DNA from: an uncultured Planctomycetia bacterium
GTDB lineage: Bacteria; Planctomycetota; UBA8108
Assembly (NCBI GenBank): GCA_964615885.1
Contig: CAZTRG010000149.1
Span: 2,903 to 66,902, forward strand
Length of the DNA stretch: 64,000 bases
Reading direction: 5' to 3'
Of this stretch, positions 3,101-44,352 are shown piece by piece (positions within the stretch are counted from its first letter, which is position 1; every line of letters starts with the position of its first letter). The notes beneath the pieces are model-generated. The model was not told the origin of the DNA. It searched no databases and saw nothing but the letters and a program-made list of their open reading frames with translations. The position numbers and the translations under genes are program-made.

Positions 3101-3837
3101 TGGGCGAGCTCCTGCTCCTGCTCGGACGGCCCCTCGATGCGAGAAAGATGCTTGAAGAATGTGAACGCCTTGACCGGGAAAACGAGGGAGCGCCCCTGGC
3201 CTGTAATATCCTCTACAACCTCGCCAGGGTTGAGCTCGTCAGCTGTGATGACCCCATGGCCGAAGAGCTCTTCCAGGAATGCCTCAGCAGGCTGCCGGCT
3301 GAACAGGACCAGGACCTCAGGACCCATGCGCTGGCCGGGCTTGCCGAGATCTTTCTGAACAGGGGCATGGAAGAGGCCGCAGAGGATGCCCTGCGGGAAG
3401 CCGAGGAGCTCTCCACTAAGGGAGCCGGGCAGGAAAACCGGATGTACCTGCGTGGACTTCGGATGAGGCTCTGCAGGCAACGCGGAGAGCTCGAGGAAGC
3501 GATCACCCTGGCCGGGGGCAAGCCAGGGGATGAGGCTGGAAGACACGAAGCTGCCCACCTTGCCCTGGAGCTCGGCGCCACCTACCGCGACCTCGGCCCC
3601 GACTGGGCCGACAAGACCGAGAAGTACCTGAACAGGGCTGCGGGGGAATTTGAAAATATGGGCTGTCCGGTTGAGGCAGCCGAAGCACTGGGTGAGCTCT
3701 CCGTCTACTGGAGGCTTACAGGAGAAGAGGAGGCCGCTGCGGAAAACCTGCAGCATGCCGAGAGGCTGCTCAGCTCAGGCCAGCTGGGGCCACGGCTCTC
3801 CCGCTTTACGGAAATATTTAAATCGAGGTCACCATGA
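130..3837 (+). CDS. Multidomain Ser/Thr protein kinase (PknK-like): N-terminal kinase, central P-loop STAND/AAA_16 NTPase, C-terminal TPR repeats
   Basis: Kinase motifs: G-loop [13 protein letters not shown]-like ALKLF, catalytic loop [10 protein letters not shown] (Gly replaces Arg, so non-RD type), DFG present (LLDFGLARG). Walker A GECGIGKS about residue 350. C-terminal degenerate TPR-like helical repeats. 1235 aa. Confidence 0.85.
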
Positions 3838-5618
3838 GTAAAACCACCTACAGGCGCAAGGCAATCCTGTCTCGAATTCACAATGCCCTGAACGCCTTCT
3901 ACCTGCTCCAGAAAATCGACTGGAAATACAACATTGCCGAGAGCCTCGAAAAGATCCTCGGCCTTGCCCTGGAAGAAATCGAGCTGGATGGGGAGAAGAC
4001 CATCGAGCGCGCCCTCATCATCGTACAGAACCCCGGGGGAGAAGATCTCGAGGTAAAGGCCGGCTGGAAAACAGACGGAGCAGATCTCAGCTTCAGCCAT
4101 ACAGTCGTGCAGGAGACCTTTGAGCGCGGCCAGCCCATACTTTGCGAAAACGCCAAGGACGATCCGCGCTTCATGAATGCCGAGAGCCTCAAACAGATCG
4201 AGACCCTGTCGCTGATTGCTGTACCGATGCAGTACGAGGAGCGATCCGTCGGGGTCTTCTATGTCGAAAGCGAATCTGCAGGCAACGTATTCAATTCCGA
4301 TGACCTTGAATTCCTGCAGGAGTTCGCAACGACCATCACCCCCTACGTCAAGTTCGGGCTCACCCACCAGGGCCATGTGCAGGAAATTCGCAAGCTCCAG
4401 GAAGCTGTCAGCGGACGCTACGATATGGGTAATATCATCGGCAGGAGCGAAGCGATCACAGGGGTCTTCGAGCTGGTTCGAATTGCGGCCGACGTCGACC
4501 GCACTGTCCTGATCACCGGGGAGTCAGGATCAGGCAAGGAGTTGATCGCCAACGCCATCCACCACAACGGCCGGCGCAAGACAGCCCCCTTCATCGTCGT
4601 AGACTGCTCGGGGCTCTCCGAACATCTCCTCGAAAGCGAGCTCTTCGGCCACCTCAAGGGAGCCTTTACCGGCGCCGGCAATGACAAGACGGGGGCCTTC
4701 GAAGAGGCCAGCGGCGGCACGATCTTTCTCGACGAGATCAAGGACGCCTCCAGGAGCCTGCAGCAGAAGCTGCGCAGGGTTCTGCAGGAGGGAGAGATTC
4801 GGCGGGTCGGTGAAAACACCGCCCGCAAGGTGGATGTCCGGGTCATCTGTGCAACCAACGAAGATCTTGGTGAGCGGGTGCAGTCCGGTGACTTCATCCA
4901 GGACCTCTACTACAGGGTCAACAAGTTCCCCATTCATGTCCCCTCTCTGAAGGAGCGGCGTGAAGACATCCCGCTGCTGGTAGCCCACTTTCTTCGCCTG
5001 ATGGACCAGGCCGAGCCACAGGACAGCTCCACCGAGATCAGCCCGGACGCCATGGAGGCACTGGTTCACCATGACTGGAGCAAAAACAACATCAGGCAGC
5101 TTCGCAATACTGTTGAGCTGGCTCGAGATCTCGCTGAAGGCGACACCATTGATCTCCCCATCCTGGAGAGGGTCCTGCGGATACAAAGCGGGGAGAGTCC
5201 CGGCCTCCTTACCCCGGGACCGGCAGGTGCTGATGAACTTGACCCTGGTTGCCTGGTGAGAATCAACAGTGAGGAGTTCGGAAGCCTGCTGGAAAAGGAG
5301 ACCGCCCGTAGTCCTGAAGACAAGCGTGAGCGGGGCGAGACCCCCTTCTACCGTCTCCAGTCGGAATTCCAGGCCAGGGCCATCACCGAGGGCCTGCGCT
5401 CCTGCAGGTGGAAGATCAGGCCTGCCGCCCGGCTGCTGGGGATCAGCCCGATGAAGCTGCGCACAGCCCTGAAGGACTACCTGGAGTTTCTGCTCAGAAG
5501 CCGGGTCAGGGACCTTGAGCAGGCGGCCGGGGAGCTTGATATCCCACTCGAGGTGCTGCAGAAAAAAGCGAAGGACTTCGGACTCGAGGGCCTGGAGACA
5601 GGGGAGGAGGTCTCATGA
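3834..5618 (+). CDS. Sigma-54-dependent transcriptional activator with N-terminal GAF domain and C-terminal Fis-type HTH
   Basis: AAA+ sigma-54 interaction motifs [15 protein letters not shown] and GAFTGA. N-terminal GAF-like region. C-terminal HTH ([16 protein letters not shown]). 4-nt ATGA overlap with the upstream kinase gene. Confidence 0.85.
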
Positions 5619-11146: not shown

Positions 11147-12049
11147 TCAAGACCAGTAGTGGAGGAGGCACCAGAATACGAACCCACTGAAAATAAAGCT
11201 GTCGATCATGTCCAGAACCCCCCCGAACTCCGGCAGTAGAGACCCGGAATCCTTGACGCCGTAAATTCGTTTCAAGAGGGATTCGCTCAGATCACCGATA
11301 GCGGCACTGAAAGCGAGAATTATCCCAAAGCCAATTGCAGGTAGCCATCCAAATTTAAGATCCGCCACATAGCCTGAATCCGCAGCCAGGGCGAACCAGG
11401 CTCCAACCAGCACAAAACCCGCCAGGAAACCCTCTAAGGTCTTATTGGGGCTTACCTTAAGAAATTTAACACGGCCAATAGTCGAGCCCACAACGTAGCC
11501 ACCGATATCCGTCAGTTTCACTCCAAAAACAAAAACTGCCCCGGTCAGCACATCTTCTGACCTGCAGTAAATCCTGATCAAAAAAGAGAAAAACAAGCCG
11601 CAAAGAACAGCCCCCAGGACTGTGCTGGCAATCTTCCCGGCCCCATCGGCAAAATCACTGCGAAATAAAACCACCAGGAAGGACAGCAGCACCAGTGCAA
11701 AGACACCGGCGATCACCAGCTCCAGTTCCTGCTCACCGGCGCCGGGAACGAAACCTCCTGCCCCCCAGTCCCAGCAGGCCAGGGCGAGAAACCATGCGGT
11801 TGCCAGGAAGCCCGGCAGAGACTGCAGCGACAGCGATCTCCCGGTTGCCATCTTTGAATACTCGAGGTACCCCACCAGCCCCATGAGAACCAGTATGGCG
11901 GAGCCGGCCAGTCTTTGCTCCAGCCACGCATCGAGGGCCAGGACCCCGGCGACCAGCAGCACCAGGACAATCCCCAGAAGATAACGAACCTGTTTAGCGC
12001 CCAAGCAGTTCCCTCCCGGAGACCTCTCTCCCCGATGCCGCTCTGTCAT
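11147..12049 (-). CDS. cdsA: Phosphatidate cytidylyltransferase (CDP-diglyceride synthetase)
   Basis: Multi-TM protein with the CdsA C-terminal signature KRIYGVKDSGSLLPEFGGVLDMIDS. Confidence 0.8.
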   Translation of the reverse strand: MTERHRGERSPGGNCLGAKQVRYLLGIVLVLLVAGVLALDAWLEQRLAGSAILVLMGLVGYLEYSKMATGRSLSLQSLPGFLATAWFLALACWDWGAGGFVPGAGEQELELVIAGVFALVLLSFLVVLFRSDFADGAGKIASTVLGAVLCGLFFSFLIRIYCRSEDVLTGAVFVFGVKLTDIGGYVVGSTIGRVKFLKVSPNKTLEGFLAGFVLVGAWFALAADSGYVADLKFGWLPAIGFGIILAFSAAIGDLSESLLKRIYGVKDSGSLLPEFGGVLDMIDSFIFSGFVFWCLLHYWS

Positions 12050-12102
12050 TCAAACCAGCAGGGTCTTTCATGCCTGCCACATCCGGTAAACCATGATCCA
12101 GT

Positions 12103-12876
12103 TCAGATCCCGCCGGAGCCTGGTGATCTCTCACGGGAAGCTCCATCCACGACCGCGCCGTATTTTCGATCACGACTGACATAAGCTTCAACCGCCTGCT
12201 CGAGATGCTCAACGTCAAAATCCGGCCACAGCTCGTCGGTGATCCACAGCTCACTGTAAGATGACTGCCAGAGGAGAAAATTCGACAGCCTGTATTCTCC
12301 GGCTGTTCGAATCACCAGGTCGGGATCCTGCATCTGCGGATCACCCAGGTAGGCAGCAAAGGAATCCTCTGTCAATTCCTCGAGGCAATCGGGATCCATT
12401 CTTCCCTCCTTGACCTCCCTGCAGATCCTGCGGACCGCGTTAAGGATCTCCTGCCGGGACCCGTAATTGAGCGCCAGCCGCATCACCATCCGGTCATTAC
12501 CCGCGCTCAGGCTCCGGGTCTCCTCCAGGGTCTCCTGGACATCCGCAGGAAGGGAGCTGACATCTCCAATGGTCGTAAGCCGGATACCGTTCTCCATCAA
12601 CACAGGACGTTCCCTGATGAGGTAGGTCTTCAGGAGCTTCATCAGGAAACGAACCTCCGCCGAAGGACGCCGGAGGTAATTCTCTGTAGAGAGGGCGAAA
12701 AAGGTCGTCTCGCTGACCCCCAGCTCACGGCAACGGGTCGTAATCCTTCTCAAGGCGCCCGCGCCCTCCTCGTAACCCCGTCTCCTGAGAAGCCCCCTGG
12801 TCCGCGCCCAGCGCCCATTGCCATCCATGATAAAAGCAATGTGGGCAGGAAGCTGTTGCGGGGAAAAGGCTGCCAA
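12103..12876 (-). CDS. uppS: Undecaprenyl diphosphate synthase
   Basis: HIAFIMDGNGRWA and RTxGEYRLSNFLLWQ motifs. Confidence 0.85.
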   Translation of the reverse strand: MAAFSPQQLPAHIAFIMDGNGRWARTRGLLRRRGYEEGAGALRRITTRCRELGVSETTFFALSTENYLRRPSAEVRFLMKLLKTYLIRERPVLMENGIRLTTIGDVSSLPADVQETLEETRSLSAGNDRMVMRLALNYGSRQEILNAVRRICREVKEGRMDPDCLEELTEDSFAAYLGDPQMQDPDLVIRTAGEYRLSNFLLWQSSYSELWITDELWPDFDVEHLEQAVEAYVSRDRKYGAVVDGASRERSPGSGGI

Positions 12877-12878
12877 GA

Positions 12879-15447
<2,569 letters not shown>

Positions 15448-33618: not shown

Positions 33619-33656
33619 CCCTGCCCGGCGGCTCATTGCCCGGGCAGGGGTTTTTT
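33619..33656 (+). terminator. Rho-independent terminator (hairpin CCCTGCCCGG / CCGGGCAGGG plus T6) between convergent genes
   Basis: 10-bp perfect stem 33619-33628 / 33640-33649 followed by TTTTTT 33651-33656. Abuts the stop codon of the minus-strand gene 33655..34209. Confidence 0.8.
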
Positions 33657-34209
33657 ATTTCGCAGGAGAACCGGATACCCCCCGGGCCTCCCAGATCACC
33701 TCGGCCCGCAAGACACGGCCGGTCACTGGCAGGCCCTTGTCGACCTCCTCGTCAAGAATCACGGCCTGCGCGCAAACCCCCGGCGGAAGAAAGCCGGCCT
33801 TGAGCGGCAACTTCCCGGGAGCTTCTGCCAGGTCCTCCCGGCTCCAGGCCAGGACGATTCCTCCGTGTGAACCGGGCCCCCTGACCCTGACTCTCCGGCT
33901 GGAGATCCTGCTGACTGCGATACCGGTCCAGACCAGGGGAGGAGACAGGTCTCCCGCAAACAGGGCTGCCAGGCCCAGCTCGTTGACCCCGACAGCTGCC
34001 TTCGTGCCAAGCAAGGCCTCCGCCTCCGCAAGGGCCTCTGCACAGCGGACCTTTTCACCCTGCTCACCCCCCATCCGCCCATGGAGCCCATCGACCATTC
34101 CCTGGGCCAGCTGCAGGCAGCCCTCCAGGGCCTCTCCGCCGCCGGGCCGCCAGGCAGCAGGAAGCTGCCCGGCAATCATGAGCTGATCAGAGCTTTCCGT
34201 CCGCCTCAT
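33655..34209 (-). CDS. Phage P2 gpI-like / TssG-like baseplate wedge protein (CIS component)
   Basis: 184 aa, immediately downstream of and overlapping (ATGA) the gpJ-like gene. Weak similarity to tail protein I (LLP..., ...GT.aAv motifs). Assignment mostly by conserved J-I gene order. Confidence 0.4.
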   Translation of the reverse strand: MRRTESSDQLMIAGQLPAAWRPGGGEALEGCLQLAQGMVDGLHGRMGGEQGEKVRCAEALAEAEALLGTKAAVGVNELGLAALFAGDLSPPLVWTGIAVSRISSRRVRVRGPGSHGGIVLAWSREDLAEAPGKLPLKAGFLPPGVCAQAVILDEEVDKGLPVTGRVLRAEVIWEARGVSGSPAK

Positions 34210-36542
34210 GAGTGGCTCCTGTCTTCGACTGCAGGTTCATCGACCACCTGCTCACACTCAATTTCAACGCCCTCAAGAACACCCACAGCGATGGGAAGGT
34301 CAAGGGCAACGGCAGAATCCAGCGATGATTCCACCCGCAACGTGAACCCGGCTTGCCCGCCGGCCTCACGGAGGATTTCTCCTGCAACAGCACGAACCTG
34401 CTCGCCCCCTAGCTCTGTCACCAGGGGGCACCCCTTCCCTGCTCTTCCACCGCTAAGGGGGTCCAGGTAGCTCTGCAGGCAGGAGGCGAGCCGCTCTCCC
34501 AACCGGGAGACGTCCCGGGCTGCCTCCCCGCTGCGGTCTGTCACACCGAGGTAAACCTTGAAGGGAATCCGCATGGGCTCGACGACCTGGACAACCGTTC
34601 CAAGAGGGACCCTTCGCTGCAGGTAACGCTGCAGCGCTCCCAGGCGCCGGGCTCCCAGTGGCTCAAAACAGGACCCGGCATCAGCCTGCGCAAGGACTGC
34701 TCCCCAGGCAACGACCCAGACCTCCGATGGGCGAAGCGGATGCGCAACGACCTCTATCCTCGAAAGCGATGGATCAAGCTTGCGCAGCAGCCTGTCATAA
34801 TCAGCTCCGCTGACCAGCGTCCCACCGTCGGACTGTTCGGCTGCGAGCCGGCGGTAGAAATGGGCTCCGTTCTCACCCTCCGATCCATCCAGGACCGGAA
34901 CCGGCTGCGAAATGCGCTCGAGACCTTCCACCTCCAGCTCGAGAACATCCAGGCTGTCACGAGGCATGCTCCCTGCCCGGCCGATCCCTGTCCGCAAGCC
35001 CTCGATGCTGGCCTTCACCGGCCCATCGAGAGCCATCCCTGCTATCACCTCTACCTCACCACCGGATTTTCTGCGCAGGCAAAAGCCCTCCGGACCGGGG
35101 GCACCCGTGCCCTCCTCCAGCCTGAGAGTTTTCCAGCCACCTTCGAGGGACAGCTGCAGAGAATCAAAGGGCTCGAAATCGCCTTCCGGATGAGGCGGCA
35201 GCTCCGCCACCGAGCTCCTGAACTGGAGGCTTGCAGGCTGGCTTCCGACCCTGCGGCCCTCGACCACCTCAACTGCACCGGGAACCAGTGTCCTGACCAG
35301 TGCCGGGCTGAAATAGAAGCCGCTGGACCAGCAGGCCCGCACCCAGTAAAGGTCCCTGCCGAAGAGTCTCCTGCGACTCCAGCCCTGCGGCGCCTGCCAG
35401 GATACCGTTCCACTTCCTGTAAAGGCCCGGGTGCCATCGGCCACCTCCAGCTCCCGGAAGGAGTCCTCACAGGAAAACTCCCATTCCAGCCCCGGCCGTC
35501 CGTTCTCCAGGCCGGCCCCGATTCCACCTGAGAGCCAGTACAGGCTGGCCGGCTGCGGTTGATCCCAACCAAGATAGACTGCCGGTGAGTGGCGCTGTGA
35601 CATCGTCCCCAGCTCAAGACCGCCATCGCCAGAGAAGGAATGATCCTGCCACGAATCTCCCGAATGGATGAAAAGGCGCGCAGGGGGACGATCGACAAGC
35701 TTCTTCTGTTTTGATTTCCTGTCTCGCCTCAGGAGCCAGACCACCGTTGGAGTTGCCAGCGAAACAGGGGCTCTCCTGGGCAGTCGAAGACGGATCCATG
35801 GAGAGTCGAAGCCCTCGATCTCGCGGCTTGTCATATCCGGCAGGGGACCATGGATTCTCATGCGCAGCAGGGGTTCGCCTGCGATATTGCAGCTCTGGCT
35901 GAAATCAACCGGCAGCAGCCTCCAGCCGGCACCGCAGGAATACTCCCATTCGCCTTCCAGCACCGCCTGCGGCGTACCCGGCCACTCGAGTACCAGCTCG
36001 GCCTTGTGGCGCCTGAGCTGATCCCACTCGGCATCGCCGAGATAGAGATGATGGTGGAGCCGGTCAGAGCCGAAGAGCCTGACAGGAGCTTCCCCTTCTC
36101 CATCGACGGGAAGCTGCCGGGCCAGGTCTCCCTCGAGCACCACTGCATGCTCCAGGCGGGCCGTGGAAACCCAGCCATCCGCTGCTGTCTCAAAGTAGAC
36201 CCGTCCCTCCGCAGCTGTCTTGCGGGAGGCGGTTAGAGCTGTTGCCGCCGGAACCTTTACGGCCCCCTGCAGCCCTTCGCCCGGATGGAATTTGACCGCC
36301 GAGCTTGCGGCAAGCGGCCAGGAGGGCTCGTGACCGAGCTCCGCCAGCAGGCGTGGCAGGATACGCCCGGTACTTTCAGCCAGCTCACCCTCCAGGCGGG
36401 CAAGCACAACAGCAAAGCTCTCCAGCACGGCCCGGGCAGGATCCCCGGGTCCCCGGGCCGCCCAGTCCGGAATGCGTGCAGCAGCAGCCCTCTCGAGCTC
36501 CCGAAGAGCTTCCCGTTCCCGGCCGTCCTGGGGGTCCTGCAT
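34206..36542 (-). CDS. Baseplate J-like protein (P2 gpJ / T4 gp6 / TssF-like) of a contractile injection system
   Basis: N-terminal Baseplate_J-like region (DPARAVLESFAVVLARLEGEL..., FETAADGWVSTARL). Size 778-790 aa typical for Afp11/Pvc11-like proteins. Start ambiguous: GTG 36578 (ORF track), ATG 36566, or ATG 36542 (chosen, GGTGGAG RBS, no overlap with gp25). Confidence 0.7.
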   Translation of the reverse strand: MQDPQDGREREALRELERAAAARIPDWAARGPGDPARAVLESFAVVLARLEGELAESTGRILPRLLAELGHEPSWPLAASSAVKFHPGEGLQGAVKVPAATALTASRKTAAEGRVYFETAADGWVSTARLEHAVVLEGDLARQLPVDGEGEAPVRLFGSDRLHHHLYLGDAEWDQLRRHKAELVLEWPGTPQAVLEGEWEYSCGAGWRLLPVDFSQSCNIAGEPLLRMRIHGPLPDMTSREIEGFDSPWIRLRLPRRAPVSLATPTVVWLLRRDRKSKQKKLVDRPPARLFIHSGDSWQDHSFSGDGGLELGTMSQRHSPAVYLGWDQPQPASLYWLSGGIGAGLENGRPGLEWEFSCEDSFRELEVADGTRAFTGSGTVSWQAPQGWSRRRLFGRDLYWVRACWSSGFYFSPALVRTLVPGAVEVVEGRRVGSQPASLQFRSSVAELPPHPEGDFEPFDSLQLSLEGGWKTLRLEEGTGAPGPEGFCLRRKSGGEVEVIAGMALDGPVKASIEGLRTGIGRAGSMPRDSLDVLELEVEGLERISQPVPVLDGSEGENGAHFYRRLAAEQSDGGTLVSGADYDRLLRKLDPSLSRIEVVAHPLRPSEVWVVAWGAVLAQADAGSCFEPLGARRLGALQRYLQRRVPLGTVVQVVEPMRIPFKVYLGVTDRSGEAARDVSRLGERLASCLQSYLDPLSGGRAGKGCPLVTELGGEQVRAVAGEILREAGGQAGFTLRVESSLDSAVALDLPIAVGVLEGVEIECEQVVDEPAVEDRSHS

Positions 36543-36555
36543 ATTCTCCACCGAT

Positions 36556-36918
36556 TCAGCGCACATTGTTTTTCTCACCCTGGAGGCTGAAGGTTAAATT
36601 CATCAAGCCCCCCCCGCCCTCCAGGCTCACCTGGATTTTCCCGTCCCCGGCAGCCAGTATTTTCACCCGGCGAACTCCGGCCCAGGGGGCCCACTCACCC
36701 AGGGCCTCTTCAATAAAAACCGCGGCGAGCTGCCGCTCATGCTGTGTTTCAATTTTCCCCATGCTGTGTACCCGGCACCCGAAGGAAGGCAGCAGCGGAC
36801 GCTCTCCAGGCTGAACCTCAAGAATAAGCCGCAACCTCTCTTCCACCAGCCGGCCGTCTGCTTCCAGCTCCCGGGTCCCTGCGAAGAAGGCGTCCACGGT
36901 CTCAACCCTGCCGACCAT
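36556..36918 (-). CDS. gp25/GPW-like baseplate wedge protein (TssE/Afp9-like)
   Basis: MVGRVETVD...ILEVQPGERPLLPSFGCRVHS...IEEALGEWAP matches the GPW_gp25 signature. ATG at 36916-36918 with AGGGAGGTG RBS. The longer ORF-track N-terminus (to 37383) overlaps the hub gene in another frame and is artefactual. Confidence 0.8.
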   Translation of the reverse strand: MVGRVETVDAFFAGTRELEADGRLVEERLRLILEVQPGERPLLPSFGCRVHSMGKIETQHERQLAAVFIEEALGEWAPWAGVRRVKILAAGDGKIQVSLEGGGGLMNLTFSLQGEKNNVR

Positions 36919-37792
36919 CTTCACCTCCCTTCCAGCGCTCAAGATCGACACCGTTTTCGAGATAATCAACCCGGGTGCGGTAACCGAGCCTGTCCCAGCA
37001 ATGCCGCGCCCTGGCCACCCTGTAGCGCCCCACAGCCAGGCGACCCCGGCCCACGATGTCAAACTCCTGCAGCGGAAGCCAGCCGGGATCTCCGGCGAGC
37101 TCGAAGAAGCCGCCCTTACCCCGTGATGAATGCTCCTCGATGACAAATTCAAGCACACGGTCATCTGCGTACAGCACTCCTGCACAGGGGGGCAGGCCGG
37201 GAACATCGGCTCCAGCCGGCAAGCTCGCAGAGAAGTAGAGCCTGCCGGCGGTAACCGCAAGCTCATACCCGATCGCCCTCGCCCGCTGTCGCAGGAATTC
37301 CAGCCTTTCACCCGGGCATTCAACCAGCTCGAGGACCTCCGTGGTTGGCTCGACAGCCGGCTGCAGCCCCAGCTCACGGGCAAACATACCGGCCAGCTCC
37401 GAATCGCAGTGGTGGTAAAAAGTCTGCGGCTCGTGGAGAAGGGATGCTTCCCGCTGGTGGCAATGAGCCCTCAGCAATCCCACCGTTCCAGCACGGTCCC
37501 GCTTCAGTCCGCGGTCACGAATCCGGCCGCGGAAGAGGGGACCGGACGGCAACTCGATGACCAGCTCAGCGCCGGGAACCAGGGAGTCGAGCACCTCCTC
37601 CACTCCCGGAGAGGCGCCGTCGGCGGCAAATAAGATCTCCAGGTGGTCAAAGCCGTCGGCCTGGAGAAAAACCTCGCAGCCCAGGAGCGTCGTCCCGGAG
37701 GGGAGAACAGAGCAAACCGGCAGCTGCTGCTGGCCTGGAGCCAGCTGCAATCCGGAGGAGCTGGTTGGATAAACCCGTGTTTTCTCGATCAT
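36902..37792 (-). CDS. Phage late-control gpD / gp27-like baseplate hub protein (short, no recognisable gp5-like spike extension)
   Basis: 296 aa. C-terminal GRYRVARARHCWDRLGYRTRVDY fits the VgrG/gpD hub motif (GxYxVxxVxHxxxxxxYxNxF). Position between tube genes and gp25 is as in eCIS/P2. Confidence 0.55.
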   Translation of the reverse strand: MIEKTRVYPTSSSGLQLAPGQQQLPVCSVLPSGTTLLGCEVFLQADGFDHLEILFAADGASPGVEEVLDSLVPGAELVIELPSGPLFRGRIRDRGLKRDRAGTVGLLRAHCHQREASLLHEPQTFYHHCDSELAGMFARELGLQPAVEPTTEVLELVECPGERLEFLRQRARAIGYELAVTAGRLYFSASLPAGADVPGLPPCAGVLYADDRVLEFVIEEHSSRGKGGFFELAGDPGWLPLQEFDIVGRGRLAVGRYRVARARHCWDRLGYRTRVDYLENGVDLERWKGGEDGRQG

Positions 37793-37820
37793 GCGCTCAG
37801 CCCATCTGCTCTCGGCCTGT

Positions 37821-38234
37821 TCATCCTCTCATCTCCAGTCGAACCAGGCCGCGAACAGGAGTTCCATCGGGGTCGAAACGAACCCAGTCCTCCTCGATCC
37901 GGTCGATATAGCCTGTAAACCGAAAAGGTCCCCAGAGAAAAACGACCTTCGCAGGAGGGCCGCCCGGCGATTGCGGATCCATCCAGCCTTCGAGCTTCTC
38001 GGCAATCTCGCGCAGGTTCCGCTCATCCAGCGGACGACGGGTCGAGTCGAGGAAGAGCTCGGTTGAAAAACGTTCTTCGCAAGCACCGCTCAGCGCGGCC
38101 TGCATGCCCGCCGGGGCAAGCTGGTTTTTCTTCGAGAGTGAATACTTGGCCGGGTTCCAGTCAACCGTCACGGTCTCCATGCTGCCGAGATCGGTCAGCT
38201 CCGCCTTGACCAGTCCGTTCAGTTTTTCTTCCAT
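37821..38234 (-). CDS. Hypothetical CIS-associated protein (between tube and hub genes)
   Basis: 137 aa, overlaps the tube gene by 16 nt. Conserved-looking C-terminus VVFLWGPFRFTGYIDRIEEDWVRFDPDGTPVRGLVRLE. No family assigned. Confidence 0.35.
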   Translation of the reverse strand: MEEKLNGLVKAELTDLGSMETVTVDWNPAKYSLSKKNQLAPAGMQAALSGACEERFSTELFLDSTRRPLDERNLREIAEKLEGWMDPQSPGGPPAKVVFLWGPFRFTGYIDRIEEDWVRFDPDGTPVRGLVRLEMRG

Positions 38235-38638
38235 CTTAATCCTTCGTAGACGATCTCCAGTTTTTCGAGCGCGATCTCCGGGTCCCGTGCATCCAGTGGT
38301 GGGCCTTTCCAGCTGACCGCCAGGGCGCTGTGAAAACTCCAGCGCATGCTCTCCTTGCCATCCTCATCGAGGAGCACAACGGCGCCGCTGCGCGGCAGTG
38401 CATCCTGGTACCAGTTCCAGAGCTCCGCATCGCGGGTCAGGCCACGCTCGAGCACCAGCCTTCCTGTCGAGGGGCCATCCTCAAAGAACTCGACCCTGTC
38501 GGAGCCGCCTTCGCGGTACTCCAGGACCTCGCGACTGCTCTCGAGTCCCGAGCAGCTGACAAAACCAGCCGTCGAAACCCCCTCGAGCTCGAGATCAAAG
38601 CGATCACCTCTCAGCAATTCCTTCAGCAGCACTCTCAT
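38219..38638 (-). CDS. Contractile-system tube protein, T4 gp19 / Hcp-like (Afp5/tube-initiator-like)
   Basis: FDLELEGVSTAGFVSCSGLESSREVLEYREGG...GRLVLERGLTRDAELWNW matches the conserved phage-tail-region tube signature. GGGAGA RBS. Confidence 0.8.
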   Translation of the reverse strand: MRVLLKELLRGDRFDLELEGVSTAGFVSCSGLESSREVLEYREGGSDRVEFFEDGPSTGRLVLERGLTRDAELWNWYQDALPRSGAVVLLDEDGKESMRWSFHSALAVSWKGPPLDARDPEIALEKLEIVYEGLRWKKN

Positions 38639-38665
38639 GCCTGGAATCTCCCTGTGCGAAAAGCT

Positions 38666-39175
38666 TTATTCACCGGCAACCTCTCCATCGCTGACCCGCT
38701 CCAGCCTCTCGACTACCAGCTCCAGGGTCTCAATACTGATTTCTTCTCCGCTTATATCCAGCAGGGGCCCCTCGTAACGGCAAGGCCAGGCAGCGTAAAA
38801 GTTCCACCTGGCCGTCTCTCTCAGGGCCGCATCCAGCAGCACGATCGAGCCGTTGCGGAGATCCTCTTCCCCCTCCTCAATACCTTTGCGCCAGAGGTAA
38901 AATGCATCGGAGGTCGTAACTCCCCTCTTGAGGAGGATATTGCCGTAGACGGCCCGCCCGGGAATCTGCATTGCTGTTGCCTGGTTACCTACCCTGTACT
39001 CCAGCACCTCTGAACGGGAAACCAGCCCGCTCACTTCACGAAAACTTCCGGCAAGGTCTCCGCCGCCTTCTCCAAGGCCATCGACCTCGACGAGAAAATT
39101 GCAGTTGGCGGTCAATTCGAAGGCCTGCCGCGACTGCTTCGGTTCAAGTTGTGTCCCTGGTTTCCTGATGACCAT
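38666..39175 (-). CDS. Contractile-system tube protein, T4 gp19 / Hcp-like (Afp1-like)
   Basis: FLVEVDGL...GSFREVSGLVSRSEVLEYRVGN...YGNILLKRGVTTSDAFYLWR matches the tube signature. Start codon overlaps the stop of the upstream gene (ATGA). Confidence 0.85.
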   Translation of the reverse strand: MVIRKPGTQLEPKQSRQAFELTANCNFLVEVDGLGEGGGDLAGSFREVSGLVSRSEVLEYRVGNQATAMQIPGRAVYGNILLKRGVTTSDAFYLWRKGIEEGEEDLRNGSIVLLDAALRETARWNFYAAWPCRYEGPLLDISGEEISIETLELVVERLERVSDGEVAGE

Positions 39176-40143
39176 CAGCTTACCGACTCCTCCAGGACAG
39201 CGCTGCCGGCAGGAAGAAGCTGTTCCACCTCGACCCCATCGCAGGTATCCATTCGCGTCCGAACAGCGATGGACAATCTGCGCTCAAAGCCCTCTGCCCC
39301 ATCCTCCGGGTCACCCACCAGCGACACCTTCAGCTCAAACCCCTTTCGAAAGGGCAGGAATCCATCGACGGCCAGGCTGTGAAGGAAAGCCCTCACCTCC
39401 CGCTCAAGCTTCCGCAGAAGAACCTCTGAGGCGTACTCGAATACTGTCCAGCGAGTCCCTGTCTCCAGTGAACGGCGAAGCCCCTGGCGGCGGCGCCAGG
39501 TCACCAGGGCACGCAGCTCATCGGGGAAGGGAAGAAGGTCTCCCTCCCCTCCGATCCCGCTGCGAATCGCCAGGCTTGACCTCTGGAGTGCAGAGGGTGT
39601 TCGAAGGGGGAAAAAGTCCCTGGCCTCCAGGCAGCCGGCAAGGCAGGCCGCCGAAGGTTTCCCGGGAACCTTTGCCTCCAGGACAGCCAGGTTAGGCAGC
39701 GGTCTCCGCAGGCAGGCTCCAGGCTCTCCACCAGCCTGCTGCCCGCTTCCTCCCACCACCTGGCAGCACAGCAGCAGCATTGGATGCTGCAATGCAAAAT
39801 CTTCAAGTAAGCCGGTTGCCTCGGGCCTCACCGGCGGCAGGACCACCGTACCGACCTCATCCCTGCCGGCCAGCTCGTACAAACCGGAGCACTCCCCGGG
39901 GGCTCCCGGCTCACCAAGCAGCTGCGAGAGGGCCTCCTCGTCAAGCACTCCATCCCTGTATCCGGCTTCGGTGGAGAGAGAGAGGGGCTCCAGGAGAAGC
40001 TCCAGCCCGCCTCCGCCGGTAAAGTCCTCCACCAGGGCTTTCTCCTGCGCAGCTGTTTCTTCCAGGCCCGGAGCTCTCAGCAGGACCATGGCAGTCTTGC
40101 CGCAGCCAGTCCAGGTCAGAGAACCCTGATGAGAAATCGACAT
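39175..40143 (-). CDS. Putative contractile sheath protein (short, about 322 aa)
   Basis: ATG at 40141-40143 with GGGGAGGAG RBS, 4 nt after the cap-gene stop. Position cap-X-tube-tube as in eCIS loci. C-terminus WTVFEYASEVLLRKLEREVRAFLHSLAVDGFL...FELKVSLVGD resembles the sheath C-terminal domain pattern (W.vFE...FL..L..G.L....F.v.cd). The first 106 codons of the ORF-track model are an out-of-frame overlap artefact. Confidence 0.45.
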   Translation of the reverse strand: MSISHQGSLTWTGCGKTAMVLLRAPGLEETAAQEKALVEDFTGGGGLELLLEPLSLSTEAGYRDGVLDEEALSQLLGEPGAPGECSGLYELAGRDEVGTVVLPPVRPEATGLLEDFALQHPMLLLCCQVVGGSGQQAGGEPGACLRRPLPNLAVLEAKVPGKPSAACLAGCLEARDFFPLRTPSALQRSSLAIRSGIGGEGDLLPFPDELRALVTWRRRQGLRRSLETGTRWTVFEYASEVLLRKLEREVRAFLHSLAVDGFLPFRKGFELKVSLVGDPEDGAEGFERRLSIAVRTRMDTCDGVEVEQLLPAGSAVLEESVS

Positions 40144-40147
40144 AATT

Positions 40148-40765
40148 TTACTCCTCCCCTTGCTTGAGAACCCGCTCGAGGCGAACCTCTCTTTCAAGAA
40201 CCCTCTCCACTGTCTTGTAGTTTTGCGAGACCACCGGCAATGACACCTCGAAGCTGATCCCGAGGTGATGACGGGGAAGTCCCAGCTCCCGCCAGGCATC
40301 CCTGTCTTCGACGATCTCAACAGGAAGCTCAGCCATCTCGAGGCCCACCTCCTTGCCCAGGAACTCCTCCATCTCCCCCACCGGCAACAACGCGATGGAA
40401 TGAAGAAGCTGAAGCACCGCCTCGACTGAGCCCATCTCCTCCTGGGGAGTCGCCTCCACAATCATGAAAACGTAGCGCAGGCTGACCCAGAGGGCTCCAC
40501 CGCGGCTGCGGCCCGGCAGCCCGGCCTCCTGCGCCGGCTGCATCCGGGCTCCGGCCTGCCGGTACCTGGCAGCGGGAGAAACCCGCTGCAGGTAGAGAAC
40601 CCCCCTGGCCCCGTATTCGACATCATCCCCTGCTCCCCGGGGCGGAAGATCAATCGGATGACAGAGATAGACAGGAATCTCCTGCTGTTGAGCCGTTCCA
40701 CGAACCGCCTCCTCAAGGCGAATCGCCAGGTAACGGCTCAGATCGTAGAAATCCCCTGGCCTCAT
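40148..40765 (-). CDS. DUF4255-like protein (putative tail terminator/cap, Afp16/Pvc16-like)
   Basis: 205 aa, immediately upstream of the sheath candidate. Weak motif similarity (IPVYLCHPIDLPP..., GVLYLQRVSP versus the DUF4255 N-terminal/LFLYDIRE pattern). Confidence 0.45.
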   Translation of the reverse strand: MRPGDFYDLSRYLAIRLEEAVRGTAQQQEIPVYLCHPIDLPPRGAGDDVEYGARGVLYLQRVSPAARYRQAGARMQPAQEAGLPGRSRGGALWVSLRYVFMIVEATPQEEMGSVEAVLQLLHSIALLPVGEMEEFLGKEVGLEMAELPVEIVEDRDAWRELGLPRHHLGISFEVSLPVVSQNYKTVERVLEREVRLERVLKQGEE

Positions 40766-40831
40766 GGAATTAACCTCCCTCCCCGGGAGCCCATGCAGGG
40801 CCTCTCACTGGAATACCACGCTGCTGTTGGT

Positions 40832-41329
40832 TCAGCCCGAATCATTCTCAATACCCATCCCTTGTCGCCTGCTCATTGCTCCATCCATGTACTCATCAAC
40901 AAGAGCATGGATCGAGGTGAATGAAAAATTACCTGTCCGTCCTTCCCCACCGGCCGCCTTGCGGATCGGCACGTAGCTACCATCCCTGCACGCTACCCCG
41001 AGAAGCTCCACCGCTTCTTCAGAACCGCTTCCCAGGAGCTCAGTGGCAGCCACCGCACCGTGGAGACTGTTGTGAAAACGAAAGCTCCCCCGGGGAGTTT
41101 CGATCACGAATTCCAGCCCATCCAGCAACCGGGAGCCGGGAGCCTGCACCTCGTCGGCCTCTGCAGGATCCGCCACGGCACCTCTTGTCCTGAAGGCCAA
41201 CTCAAGATTCCTGAAAAAACGTCCAAGCGCCTGGGCGTGCCCCCGCGGAACACCCGGCTCCAGGACGGAATGGTTTCTCCCCGCAGGAACCGAAAAGGCC
41301 TTCGCTATGGTTGGCCGAAGAGCTCTCAT
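40832..41329 (-). CDS. Hypothetical protein in CIS operon
   Basis: 165-aa ORF between the FHA gene and the cap candidate, same strand, short intergenic gaps. No family recognised. Confidence 0.35.
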   Translation of the reverse strand: MRALRPTIAKAFSVPAGRNHSVLEPGVPRGHAQALGRFFRNLELAFRTRGAVADPAEADEVQAPGSRLLDGLEFVIETPRGSFRFHNSLHGAVAATELLGSGSEEAVELLGVACRDGSYVPIRKAAGGEGRTGNFSFTSIHALVDEYMDGAMSRRQGMGIENDSG

Positions 41330-41360
41330 TCTCTACACTGTCCTTCTCGATTGCATTGCT

Positions 41361-43094
41361 TCACGGCACAGCTCTCCCACCACCATCGACCAGCGCGGCT
41401 CCCCCTGCCCCCTCCAGGAGCAGGCGGGCTCCCAGGTCCTCCAGGAGAGCCTCCTTCTCCAGCAATCGCTGCCTCACATCGTCTGCATATTTCCTCAGCA
41501 GGACCAGCTCTTCTGAACGACTTGATTCGCTGTCGCGGAGGCCATCGAGCTGCGCTTCCTGGTCCCGGCGCTTTTTCTCGGCAGCCACCAGGCGCCCCTG
41601 CAGAAGCTCGATCTCGCGCTGGAGGCGTTTTTCTGCTTTCTCTCTTTCGCGGCCGTAGAAGGCAAGCTCCCGGTTCACCTTCCTGTACTTTTCCTCGCTC
41701 CGGGCAAGTGCAGCCGCCTGGGTATCCATCGTCTGCTGAAGCTCCGTGGTACCCGAGCTGAGCAGCTCCAGCTCTTTTTCAATCTCCCCGCAACGCAGCC
41801 TGCACCCGGCACCGTCGGTCCGCTCCTGCTCAAGCTCTTCCTGCATGCGCAGGGCCGATTGCCTGCCGCTATCGGACTCCGCAAGGGCTTCTGCAAGCTG
41901 GGCCGCCTGTTTTTCAAGCTCGGCCCGGCTGCCCTTCAGCTCTGCCGTCATTCGTTCTTTCTCAGCCTGCAGGCTCTTGATGTTCTTCCGGTAGGCGCTG
42001 CTGAGGTCCTGCTCGGTCTCCTCCAGGCGTTTACGATTCTCTTCCTCCTGGCTGGCAAGCTCACTGCGATGATGGTGGGAATCCTGCTTCCTTTCAGCCA
42101 GGAGCGAATCAAGCTCACTGCGAAGACCGGCGAGCTCTGCACGAAGACCGATGGTGATCTCACGTTCCTTCTCGAGCTCGCCAGCGCTCGACTCAAGGCG
42201 GCGGTTCAGCTCAGCCTGGCCCGATACTGATTCAGTAAGCTTGCCTGTTTCTTCAAGCAAGAGACTGCTCACATCTGCCTGCCCTGCCTCTGCCTCACCC
42301 AGCTTCACCTGCAGATCCTGGACCTCCTGCTGCGCTACCTCTGCCTCACCCAGCTTCACCTGTAGATCCTGGACCTCCTGCTGCGCTGCCTGCAGAGATT
42401 CCATGGAATCAGCGAGCTGCTGCTGGTGATTCTCCGCCTGCTCGGCCAGCTCCGACTGAACCGCCTCCAGCTCTTTCTGCAGCTTGCCGTCCCGCGCCCG
42501 AGGCCTCCCTGGCTCTGCAGGCTGTCCTGCCTCGACCCTGGAAAGCTCATCCCTGGCTTCCTCCAGCTGGCTCTCCAGCCGGCCCCTGGCAGCCATGACG
42601 CTTTTCAGGCCGGCCACCAGCCGCTTCTTCTGGTCCAGGCGCTGGGCAAGCTTCTGGCTGAGCTCCTCGTTCTGCCGGGTCAGCCGCGCCCGGGCCTTCT
42701 CAAGCTCGACCTTCTTGGCCTCCGCAGCCTTCGCACGCCTCAGCAAGGCCCGGTCGGCCCCCGAAGCGCCTGGAGAGCTGCCTCCCGCACTCCCGGTATC
42801 AGGAATCACCGACAACCTTGTACCCCCGACCCGCAGAAGATCACCTGTTCGAAGACTTGCACGATCGACCGGCCGCTCATTCAGGAAGGTACCCCTGGAG
42901 CTCCCCAGGTCTTCGACCACCACCTCATCGCCCTCCTTCTGGAGGCGGGCGTGGCTTGGAGAAACCAGGGAATCGCTGATACACAGCTCACATTCACCGG
43001 CGCTGCCGATATCGATGGAATCCCGCAGAGGAAAGACCTTTCCTCTAAACTCTCCATTCAATACCCGCAGCATGAAACCTTCAGAGACTTTCAT
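41361..43094 (-). CDS. FHA-domain protein with about 450-aa coiled-coil C-terminal region
   Basis: N-terminal FHA (GKVFPLRDSIDIGSAGECELCISDSLVSPSHARL...GSSRGTFLNERPV). The remainder is heptad-rich, Glu/Leu/Gln/Arg-rich coiled coil with an in-frame 51-bp tandem duplication. First gene of the minus-strand CIS block. Confidence 0.8.
   Translation of the reverse strand: MKVSEGFMLRVLNGEFRGKVFPLRDSIDIGSAGECELCISDSLVSPSHARLQKEGDEVVVEDLGSSRGTFLNERPVDRASLRTGDLLRVGGTRLSVIPDTGSAGGSSPGASGADRALLRRAKAAEAKKVELEKARARLTRQNEELSQKLAQRLDQKKRLVAGLKSVMAARGRLESQLEEARDELSRVEAGQPAEPGRPRARDGKLQKELEAVQSELAEQAENHQQQLADSMESLQAAQQEVQDLQVKLGEAEVAQQEVQDLQVKLGEAEAGQADVSSLLLEETGKLTESVSGQAELNRRLESSAGELEKEREITIGLRAELAGLRSELDSLLAERKQDSHHHRSELASQEEENRKRLEETEQDLSSAYRKNIKSLQAEKERMTAELKGSRAELEKQAAQLAEALAESDSGRQSALRMQEELEQERTDGAGCRLRCGEIEKELELLSSGTTELQQTMDTQAAALARSEEKYRKVNRELAFYGREREKAEKRLQREIELLQGRLVAAEKKRRDQEAQLDGLRDSESSRSEELVLLRKYADDVRQRLLEKEALLEDLGARLLLEGAGGAALVDGGGRAVP
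42287..42388 (-). repeat. In-frame 51-bp tandem duplication (2 copies, 2 mismatches) inside the FHA/coiled-coil gene
   Basis: Copy 1 at 42287-42337 and copy 2 at 42338-42388 (cctctgcctcacccagcttcacctg[c/t]agatcctggacctcctgctgcgct[a/g]c). Encodes AQQEVQDLQVKLGEAE twice. Confidence 0.85.
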
Positions 43095-43123
43095 GCGTCC
43101 TCTTCACTTCTGAATCTTCACTC

Positions 43124-43855
43124 TTGAATCTTCACTTCAATTTTTCACCGGGGCTGACCCGGCAGGGGATTCAGGCCTGCAGTTTAGCGTTTAGCCGCCT
43201 GGGATGGAAGTTTGAAACTGCCCCCACAGAGCCTTCAACAAAGCCCCACACCCCGTTTGCCACCCGGCAGGGAACGGTATATAACCCACCTGTGAATCCG
43301 CAACAGACTAGCACCCCGGTTCATTGCCCCAACTGCGGACACCCCGTAGACCGCCAACCCATCCATTGCACCGTCTGCGGATATCAAAGCCAGTCGGTTA
43401 AAGAGTACTTCTGGATGTATCTCGGCGGCGGCGTGCTGATCCTGCTGGGGGCACTTCATGTGGTGCTTGGAACACTCTCACAGGACTCCAGGCAGGACCA
43501 TTGGAGCCGTTTATTTTCAGGCTGGTATCCCCTGGGGCCCTGGCCTGCAGATTCAAACTGGTTCGCGATTGTGCTCCTTGGGATCGCACTGACCCTGATT
43601 GGACTGGGCTTCACCAGGCACTTCAAATCGTCTTTTTACGCAGGAATCGTTCTTTTCGGCTGGCAAATTTTATGCGCCGGAAAAAAACTCCTCTCAGGCT
43701 CCCCTGAAAACACAGCCCGTTTCACTGTCTTATCTGCACTGATCCTTGAAGTCCTTTTACTGCTATTGGTTATACGGATAGGTATGGCTCTCAAAAGGAC
43801 ACCCGGGAGAGAAATCGACCGCCTCCAGAGAGGGCCTCAAAAAGCTGAAGAATAG
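43124..43855 (+). CDS. Zn-ribbon-containing integral membrane protein (about 4 TM helices)
   Basis: CPNCGHPV...CTVCGY zinc ribbon followed by hydrophobic helices (YLGGGVLILLGALHVVLG, FAIVLLGIALTLIGLGF, etc.). Divergent from the CIS operon. True start uncertain (could be internal). Confidence 0.45.
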   Translation: MNLHFNFSPGLTRQGIQACSLAFSRLGWKFETAPTEPSTKPHTPFATRQGTVYNPPVNPQQTSTPVHCPNCGHPVDRQPIHCTVCGYQSQSVKEYFWMYLGGGVLILLGALHVVLGTLSQDSRQDHWSRLFSGWYPLGPWPADSNWFAIVLLGIALTLIGLGFTRHFKSSFYAGIVLFGWQILCAGKKLLSGSPENTARFTVLSALILEVLLLLLVIRIGMALKRTPGREIDRLQRGPQKAEE

Positions 43856-44145
43856 CAAAAAACGCCTTCTGGAAGTGGTTTGAGGGCATTTCTGAATATT
43901 CACCTGTTGACTATATCCGGGTTTTCAGGTATTCAAGCTTCCCGTAATGTTGAACGGAAAGCCCTGAGAGCGTTTCTCAGAGCGTTTTAGAGGTTTTGGT
44001 GAATTCCGGATCCTGCTTTCTCTCTTTCTCAGAGGAGCTGCTTCAGAGCCTGTCAGATTGGTGATTACAGGCTTGAAGAGTTGCTTTGAGGCCGAAGGAA
44101 GGGCAAATCAGGAAATTGACCAGCAGAACAGGAGGAAGTAAAGAG

Positions 44146-44352
44146 ATGTTCGAAGATGCCCCAGCGGCGGCAGCCAGCAAAGAAACCCTGGTAGTCGGCA
44201 GCAAAGTGAAAGCATACGTCAAGTCACAGGATATGATGTCATCCGGTGAGCTTATTGGTGCCCTCAGTGACAAGGTCCACGAACTGCTTGATGCGGCCAT
44301 TGCCCGCACCAAGGCCAACAAGCGCTCAACGGTAAAGGCCAGCGATCTCTGA
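44146..44352 (+). CDS. Small histone-fold protein (DUF1931-like; candidate bacterial histone-like DNA-binding protein)
   Basis: ATG at 44146 with strong AGGAGGAAG RBS 8 nt upstream. 68 aa, MFEDAPAAAASKETLVVGSKVKAYVKSQDMMSSGELIGALSDKVHELLDAAIARTKANKRSTVKASDL, with lysine-rich helix-strand-helix layout like DUF1931/histone-fold proteins. Followed by a terminator. Confidence 0.55.
   Translation: MFEDAPAAAASKETLVVGSKVKAYVKSQDMMSSGELIGALSDKVHELLDAAIARTKANKRSTVKASDL

Follow-up and report, generated by a model that had tools for sequence, protein, structure and literature searches.

The locus described here raises the question of what a long protein, built from an FHA domain and a helical rod, does at the head of an operon for a contractile injection system (CIS) in which no tape-measure protein (TMP) can be recognised. 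The locus lies in a stretch of 64,000 nucleotides, referred to below as the window, from an uncultured Planctomycetia bacterium of the UBA8108 lineage (contig CAZTRG010000149.1 of assembly GCA_964615885.1), and the gene, called here FHA-CC for its FHA domain and coiled coil, is the first of a compact CIS operon. Two roles had been proposed in the original prediction, namely a length ruler substituting for the missing TMP and a phospho-dependent assembly factor comparable to the Fha proteins found in type VI secretion systems (T6SS). The analysis presented below tentatively favours another reading, to which a probability of about 0.38 is given: FHA-CC may be a CIS-dedicated, phospho-independent, rod-like adaptor or tether.

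A helical rod between two conserved ends

That the gene is real and opens the CIS operon agrees with what had been predicted. Its start codon and ribosome-binding site are kept in the alignment of the loci, and a word-indexed search returned 41 full-length homologues of 553-615 aa with identities of 39-98%, all the named ones coming from metagenome-assembled genomes (MAGs) of Planctomycetota. The FHA domain is followed by a Gly/Ser/Pro-rich flexible linker, the length of which varies among orthologues, and then by residues rich in Glu, Leu, Ala, Arg and Gln that make up a charged, alpha-helical rod of about 445 residues (444 aa by count). An uninterrupted coiled coil of 450 aa had been foreseen in this place. 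The long helical rod was found, but not its continuity, the AlphaFold2 model containing four helices (residues 111-189, 200-288, 293-424 and 431-563, with 433 helical residues) and three breaks between them, a Pro-rich one at 190-199 and shorter ones at 289-292 and 425-430. The a and d positions of the rod are mostly occupied by Leu, and the composition is compatible with a dimer or a trimer. No hydrophobic or transmembrane (TM) segment is present in the protein, the maximum hydropathy over 19 aa being 0.57, and sequence searches of the PDB with the rod and with its C-terminal helix gave chance coiled-coil matches only.

The invariant residues, counted in an alignment of 19 orthologues, are concentrated at the two ends of the protein. 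In the N-terminal part 57 of the 97 positions of the FHA domain are invariant, as are 25 of the 37 positions of the basic helix behind the linker, surface residues included. At the other end, the C-terminal helix has 30 invariant positions out of 54, and its motif is still discernible in a distant clade represented by the locus L016. The acidic coiled-coil spacer in between retains 32 invariant positions out of 354 and carries insertions and deletions of 10-42 aa; the length of the rod ranges from 423 to 485 aa among orthologues and the heptad phase is not conserved. Conserved ends joined by a middle that varies in both sequence and length are the signature of two functional ends connected by a spacer.

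The spacer of the window protein contains, in addition, an in-frame tandem duplication of 51 bp, corresponding to 17 aa (AQQEVQDLQVKLGEAE present twice; 2.2 copies at 93% by Tandem Repeats Finder, TRF). The duplication, which is recent and evidently tolerated, is missing from the 95%-identical homologue P0002 (560 aa), so that the length of the rod evolves on short timescales. When the window was compared with the locus L001, FHA-CC was the fastest-evolving gene of the operon (41% identical); the sheath showed an identity of 47%, the tube proteins one of 71-83% and the housekeeping genes one of 64-87%.

The FHA surface, the composition of the rod and the CIS lineage

The predicted N-terminal FHA domain was confirmed by two Pfam models. 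PF00498 (FHA) matched residues 28-90 (55.7 bits, cutoff 20.7, E=6.7e-15), and the SctD/YscD-type model PF16697, which overlaps the general FHA model, was the top-scoring one, matching residues 10-96 (64.9 bits, cutoff 33.2, E=8e-18). Solved FHA domains such as that of GarA match FHA-CC at E ~1e-10. In the alignment to GarA, Ser31 stands in place of the Arg that binds phosphate in the 'GR' motif. This Ser is invariant in 19/19 family members, and in the main clade of loci the FHA loop holding this Ser is devoid of any basic residue. The Arg following the conserved Ser has become Pro or Ser, SRxH being read as S(P/S)SH, and the Asn of the 'NG' motif is replaced by R, K, L or I across the family (Arg67 in the window protein). 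The residue set of a functional phosphothreonine (pThr) binding site, that is Arg, Ser-x-x-His and Asn, is not complete in FHA-CC. The binding loops are strongly conserved and Ser45 and His48 are retained; the FHA surface probably still serves in binding, though not as a canonical pThr reader. A phospho-dependent function is disfavoured.

The FHA domains of SctD/YscD in the type III secretion system (T3SS) and of EssC in the type VII secretion system (T7SS) are precedents for docking that does not depend on phosphorylation. As in SctD/YscD, the FHA fold of FHA-CC is associated with a nanomachine and would serve as a docking surface without the pThr residues. However, SctD/YscD and EssC are membrane-embedded ring or ATPase components, whereas FHA-CC is soluble, has no TM segment and continues into a long coiled coil; the TM helix, the periplasmic ring-building domains and the T3SS locus that characterise the SctD/YscD ring are all lacking.

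The original prediction had also pointed to a PknK-like kinase encoded in the same window. A STAND-type Ser/Thr kinase of 1235 aa with the Pkinase, AAA_16 and TPR domains is indeed encoded at 130-3837; what did not hold is the connection with FHA-CC, from which it is separated by 37.5 kb and about 30 housekeeping genes, so that sharing the window is not linkage. As a linked partner it was rejected, being too distant and outside the conserved neighbourhood, and neither the operon nor its conserved flanks contain a kinase or phosphatase gene. At 130-5618 the kinase gene overlaps the next one, which encodes a GAF-containing sigma-54 activator; the two resemble a signalling pair and are unlinked to the CIS operon.

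The comparison of the rod with TMPs gave no sign of common descent. The probabilities obtained with hhalign for FHA-CC against P2 gpT, Mu gp42, a myophage TMP and the Chi TMP were all <=0.2% (0.2% for Chi), and no TMP family model of Pfam, NCBIfam or PHROGs matched any protein of the operon, which agrees with the earlier statement that a recognisable tape measure is missing from the locus. The rods of the window protein, L001 and L016 are 38-44% charged, with a net charge of -16 to -43 and a grand average of hydropathy (GRAVY) of about -1.0, and none of the three has hydrophobic or aromatic-rich segments. In contrast, eight proteins of the tape-measure class have a charged fraction of 18-24%, a net charge that is mostly positive, and hydrophobic or Pro/Gly-rich stretches. 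Among them are P2 gpT, lambda gpH, Mu gp42, the Chi TMP, a myophage TMP, the protein in the Afp14 position and, from a Streptomyces CIS, the large protein in the TMP position. A simple heptad-window score failed to separate the rod from tape measures and was dropped as an argument, as was the heptad phase of the spacer. Like gpT, gpH, gp42 and Cis14/Afp14, FHA-CC is long and mainly helical, has a conserved C-terminal end and a length-tolerant middle, and is encoded in a tail-like cluster. Unlike them, it shows no sequence or profile similarity to the class, is acidic with about 40% charged residues and bears a folded N-terminal FHA domain. Its gene stands at the operon head, ahead of p165 and the cap gene; in the P2, Mu and Afp-like clusters used for comparison the TMP gene is found between the tube or chaperone genes and the hub (phages) or past the baseplate and fibre genes (extracellular CIS). 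To our knowledge no TMP bears an FHA domain.

Outside the Planctomycetota, the Streptomyces locus L028 (plasmid of Streptomyces sp. NBC_01324) encodes at the tape-measure position (11851-14913) a protein of 1020 aa, which is rich in Pro, Ala, Gly, Ser and Thr, strongly basic (+63) and apparently disordered. It is noteworthy in view of the statement that Streptomyces CIS have no tape-measure gene. The 'hydrolytic protein' adjoining the same CIS was tried as a comparator of the Sle1 kind and rejected, as it is not a coil.

The family is confined to one CIS lineage in marine Planctomycetota. An exhaustive HMMER search of 1.84 billion representatives returned only two full-length clusters at 50% identity together with fragments, followed by generic FHA proteins. 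FHA-CC directly precedes the p165, cap and sheath genes in 10/10 main-clade loci having upstream DNA; since these loci have common housekeeping flanks, co-occurrence within the main clade is orthologous synteny. More telling is the distant clade formed by L006 and L016, the sheath of which is only 34% identical: the place upstream of a p165 homologue is again taken by a coiled-coil open reading frame (ORF), at least 568 aa long, and the C-terminus of the L016 ORF carries a matching motif (LVKTYVDDVKESL versus LLRKYADDVRQRL). The co-occurrence with this CIS type, proposed earlier as a check, is thereby borne out on the side of the coiled-coil gene in this clade as well. The L016 ORF (3-1709) is pure coil with internal repeats (ATELAERSRELSE...) and clearly exceeds the main-clade rods in length; the sheath encoded in L016 is the longer one as well (353 aa compared with 322 aa). 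In the distant relative P0120, encoded in the locus L020, the FHA domain is 49% identical, the coil is unalignable and next to the gene, in divergent orientation, there is again one for a homologue of the Zn-ribbon/4-TM membrane protein described below. At 2371-2401 of L020, near the contig end, the TGA of the FHA-coiled-coil ORF (457 aa) overlaps the ATG of the following ORF, which may be due to a split gene or to an assembly frameshift.

A scan of genome contigs for this CIS type found only three Planctomycetota MAG loci and two irrelevant gammaproteobacterial sheath fragments, and a metagenome scan gave nothing outside the known clades. In the viral scan p165 had no match and the sheath motif matched one ordinary myophage only. 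The similarity of sheath and tube places this CIS with the Streptomyces type; the nearest systems in annotated records are those of Streptomyces, which start with DUF4255 and have no FHA-CC gene. No description of the FHA-CC family was found in the searchable literature.

Adaptor or tether weighed against other functions

If FHA-CC is an adaptor or tether, its C-terminal helix, perhaps together with p165, the product of the next gene, would dock on the CIS particle, and the FHA module with the basic helix would bind a second partner without the need for phosphorylation. The leading candidate for this partner is the divergently transcribed Zn-ribbon/4-TM membrane protein, because it is the divergent neighbour everywhere: its gene adjoins FHA-CC wherever the sequence of a locus extends that far, and so it does in the distant L020, where it is 40% identical. 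The rod, presumably oligomeric, solvent-exposed and placed outside the tube, would keep the cytoplasmic mini-CIS at a set distance from this partner or would recruit it for assembly or firing. A soluble rod rather than a lumen protein is suggested by the high content of charged residues (38-44%), the acidic character and the lack of both hydrophobic segments and TMP homology, and phospho-independence by the G-S, S(P/S)SH and (R/K/L/I)G motifs and by the YscD-type FHA model being the best in Pfam. A precedent is CisA of S. coelicolor: the cytoplasmic Streptomyces CIS require this membrane adaptor, which is absent from the particle (PMC12237407). As proposed for FHA-CC, CisA is a lineage-specific accessory factor suggested to link the cytoplasmic CIS to the membrane; it is, however, itself a membrane protein, bitopic and disordered at the N-terminus, whereas FHA-CC is a soluble rod that would reach the membrane through the Zn-ribbon/4-TM protein.

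Several points tell against the adaptor or tether. The conservation of the Zn-ribbon/4-TM neighbour could be mere synteny, since the main-clade loci have common flanks. A conserved C-terminal helix joined to a variable helical spacer equally resembles a tape measure or a lumen cargo, and the operon offers no other candidate for a ruler. The AlphaFold2 model has a mean pLDDT of 71.5 and a pTM of 0.21 overall, its FHA part being of low confidence, and the N-terminus of the L016 ORF is lost at the contig end, so that the FHA domain is not visible in that clade. Composition is an indirect argument, Sle1, the sole reported coiled-coil cargo of a CIS, standing outside the set of comparators. The readings that place the rod inside and outside the tube are nearly balanced.

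Inside the tube, FHA-CC could act as a length ruler, with the coil in the lumen, the C-terminal helix anchored in the hub and the FHA domain, too bulky for enclosure, as a distal stopper at the Pvc16_N cap; at ~1.5 Å per residue the rod would set a tube of ~65 nm. The operon is complete and well bounded and contains no other long helical protein and no member of a TMP family; the ends of FHA-CC are conserved and its spacer varies in length, as expected of a ruler, and the presence of a cap protein implies a defined termination. It is documented that TMP coiled coils are anchored at the spike or baseplate (PMC13277306), and the setting of length in Streptomyces-type CIS without a tape measure has been left unexplained (PMC12237407). 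No positive support for a ruler was nevertheless obtained: homology, composition and gene position, with the gene ahead of that of the cap, all differ from those of TMPs. Moreover, the S. coelicolor CIS, the nearest solved relative, lacks both a tape-measure gene and any FHA-coiled-coil protein, and yet its particles have a uniform length of 268 nm (PMC12237407), so that a missing TMP is a trait of the lineage and no evidence that FHA-CC replaces one. The substitution put forward in the original prediction is considered unlikely, though a serious rival of the tether. Somewhat less probable still is its more elaborate form, in which the C-terminal helix would seed the tube on the hub, the acidic coil would thread the lumen, and the FHA 'stopper', perhaps protruding from the open Pvc16_N ring, would halt polymerisation and recruit the cap; a further possibility is that it ties the distal end to the Zn-ribbon membrane protein. 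An equally low probability is given to a lumen cargo or effector analogous to Sle1/Sle2, the coil being loaded by way of p165 and ejected on contraction with delivery of the FHA module. Sle1 (Streptomyces lividans SLP) consists of a coiled coil of ~440 aa and a globular domain, is remotely TMP-like and is loaded as cargo; its partner Sle2, a small DUF4157 protein, binds the tube initiator, both genes lie beside the CIS genes, and deletion of sle1 and sle2 leaves the particles intact (PMC13277306). The likeness, drawn from this description, is close in outline, the 444-aa rod and globular domain of FHA-CC being encoded beside CIS genes of the Streptomyces type and accompanied by a constant small partner, p165, in every locus. 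In the particulars FHA-CC and p165 depart from it: p165 has neither DUF4157 nor any other Pfam match, FHA-CC has no TM hairpin or hydrophobic segment and no homology to the Chi tape measure, the remote relative of Sle1, and its gene is at the operon head on the same strand. The globular part is an N-terminal FHA domain, compared with a C-terminal helical bundle in Sle1, and for a toxin it would be odd that an FHA fold lacking the pThr residues is under strong purifying selection.

The phospho-dependent factor of the original prediction corresponds to an assembly or firing switch like TagH/Fha1 with PpkA/PppA, in which the FHA domain would read a kinase signal and nucleate CIS assembly. In favour of it, the FHA fold is significant, Ser45 and His48 remain, in the distant P0120 the 'NG' Asn is retained and an Arg stands two residues past the GS motif, and Ser/Thr kinases are numerous in Planctomycetes, with one encoded in the window. 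TagH offers a precedent, since this FHA accessory protein, likewise encoded within a contractile-machine gene cluster, is thought to nucleate or position assembly (PMC13584744). TagH, however, is a binder of the pThr in PpkA or TssL, and its gene is accompanied by those of a kinase and a phosphatase, whereas in FHA-CC the phosphate-binding Arg, which is universally required, is an invariant Ser in a main-clade loop without basic residues, the Asn is not conserved and no such enzymes are linked. The C-terminal part of FHA-CC is a long coiled coil, unlike that of TagH, and the machine is a phage-like mini-CIS rather than a T6SS; none of the T6SS markers (PpkA-type kinase, PppA, TssB/C, TssJLM, ClpV) was found in the operon or its conserved flanks. 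Such a switch is regarded as improbable. More improbable still is that FHA-CC has nothing to do with the CIS, being a coiled-coil protein of cytoskeletal or SMC-like type whose gene just happens to lie next to the CIS genes in a syntenic region. The whole region, housekeeping flanks included, is syntenic in the main clade and there are weak, sub-threshold matches to SMC coils, in agreement with a chance neighbour. These matches reach 30 bits in the coil region against a cutoff of 567, and neither the ABC ATPase head nor the hinge of an SMC protein is present. FHA-CC is, besides, on the same strand as the next operon gene at a distance of 31 bp with no convincing terminator in between, the adjacency persists in the clade with the 34%-identical sheath, and the family occurs nowhere else among the representatives searched.

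The operon, its neighbours and the meaning of the rod

The CIS operon (33655-43094, minus strand) comprises 11 tightly packed genes in ~9.4 kb and lies wholly within the window, bounded by a convergent gene with TSP3 repeats and the divergent membrane-protein gene, with housekeeping genes beyond (Table 1). The possibility, raised earlier, of a tape-measure gene outside the window is answered by this completeness. Families of ATPase, PAAR, fibre and tape-measure proteins were not recognised in the operon with Pfam, NCBIfam and PHROGs, and PADLOC gave no match. The model of p165, a confident one (pTM 0.68), is an alpha/beta sandwich of a helix, a five-stranded sheet and a helix, the structural neighbours of which are generic only. 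The cap protein consists of the Pvc16_N domain alone, with a Pfam match also in its orthologues. The sheath has no Pfam match; its family profile matched the S. coelicolor CIS sheaths (8bky/9gtp, 8bl4/9gts) at E ~9e-7. The hub is akin to the N-terminal part of Pvc8/VgrG-like spikes (profile match to PDB 9qgm_8A, E=0.001), and a needle domain was not detected in it.

Table 1. Positions in the window of the FHA-CC gene, its parts and the neighbouring features
Feature	Position	Strand	Remarks
FHA-CC gene	41361-43094	-	577 aa; ORF with Pfam FHA and Yop-YscD_cpl
FHA domain	42804-43094	-	aa 1-97; Pfam and residue alignment to GarA
Flexible linker	42756-42803	-	aa 98-113; pLDDT<50 at 97-112
Invariant basic helix	42645-42755	-	aa 114-150; LL.RA..AEA.KV.LEKARARLTR.NEEL..KL
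Variable acidic coiled-coil spacer	41583-42644	-	aa 151-504
Tandem duplication of 51 bp	42279-42391	-	inside the spacer
Conserved C-terminal helix	41421-41582	-	aa 505-558; AEKKR..QE..LDGL.D...S.EL.LL..Y.DDVR.RLLEKEALL.DL..RL
p165, partner gene	40832-41329	-	165 aa; directly downstream of FHA-CC; no family assignment
Cap/tail terminator	40148-40765	-	205 aa; Pvc16_N (DUF4255), Pfam E=7.8e-5
Minimal sheath	39175-40143	-	322 aa
Three tube-family genes	37821-39175	-	gp19: 38666-39175, 38219-38638; CIS_tube: 37821-38234
Hub	36902-37792	-	296 aa
gp25	36556-36918	-	
TssF/Baseplate_J wedge, fused	34206-36578	-	
Terminal protein	33655-34209	-	184 aa; no family match
Divergent intergenic/leader region	43095-43291	.	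197 bp
Zn-ribbon and 4-TM membrane protein	43292-43855	+	187 aa; GTG start

The leader between FHA-CC and the membrane-protein gene is nearly invariant across loci, although the FHA-CC proteins of the same loci are only ~41% identical. It contains three AGTGAAGA repeats with a spacing of 14 nt (43101-43138), identified by TRF and abutting the ribosome-binding site, and a small conserved GCCGG...CCGG hairpin upstream of them; no Rfam family matched. The region may be a conserved operator or a 5'-untranslated regulatory element of the CIS operon. A sigma-54 promoter upstream of FHA-CC was considered and rejected, as the spacing is unsuitable. Between the membrane-protein gene and moaD/moaE there is a small ORF on the plus strand (44086-44352), 88 aa as listed and 66-68 aa in orthologous loci, with no Pfam match.

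CIS are being mined as programmable devices for protein delivery, and the site, timing and length of their assembly are decided by accessory factors. The mini-CIS is unusually minimal and divergent, and FHA-CC is its one large lineage-specific protein; the family is new, while its kind, a CIS accessory or cargo protein, is already known. Whether the rod lies inside the tube, as ruler or cargo, or outside, as tether, bears on the minimal working CIS and on length control without tape measures. An FHA-capped ruler, if true, would represent a new class of tape-measure protein, unrelated to the others, and a handle on length control in Streptomyces-type CIS, and the phospho-independent reading would add a CIS example to the FHA modules of T3SS and T7SS. 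For the organisms themselves, the syntenic core-genome position of the CIS in marine Planctomycetota MAGs (ALOHA, UBA8108, UBA1662 and Tara contigs) points to a domesticated cellular role of the mini-CIS rather than to a mobile weapon.

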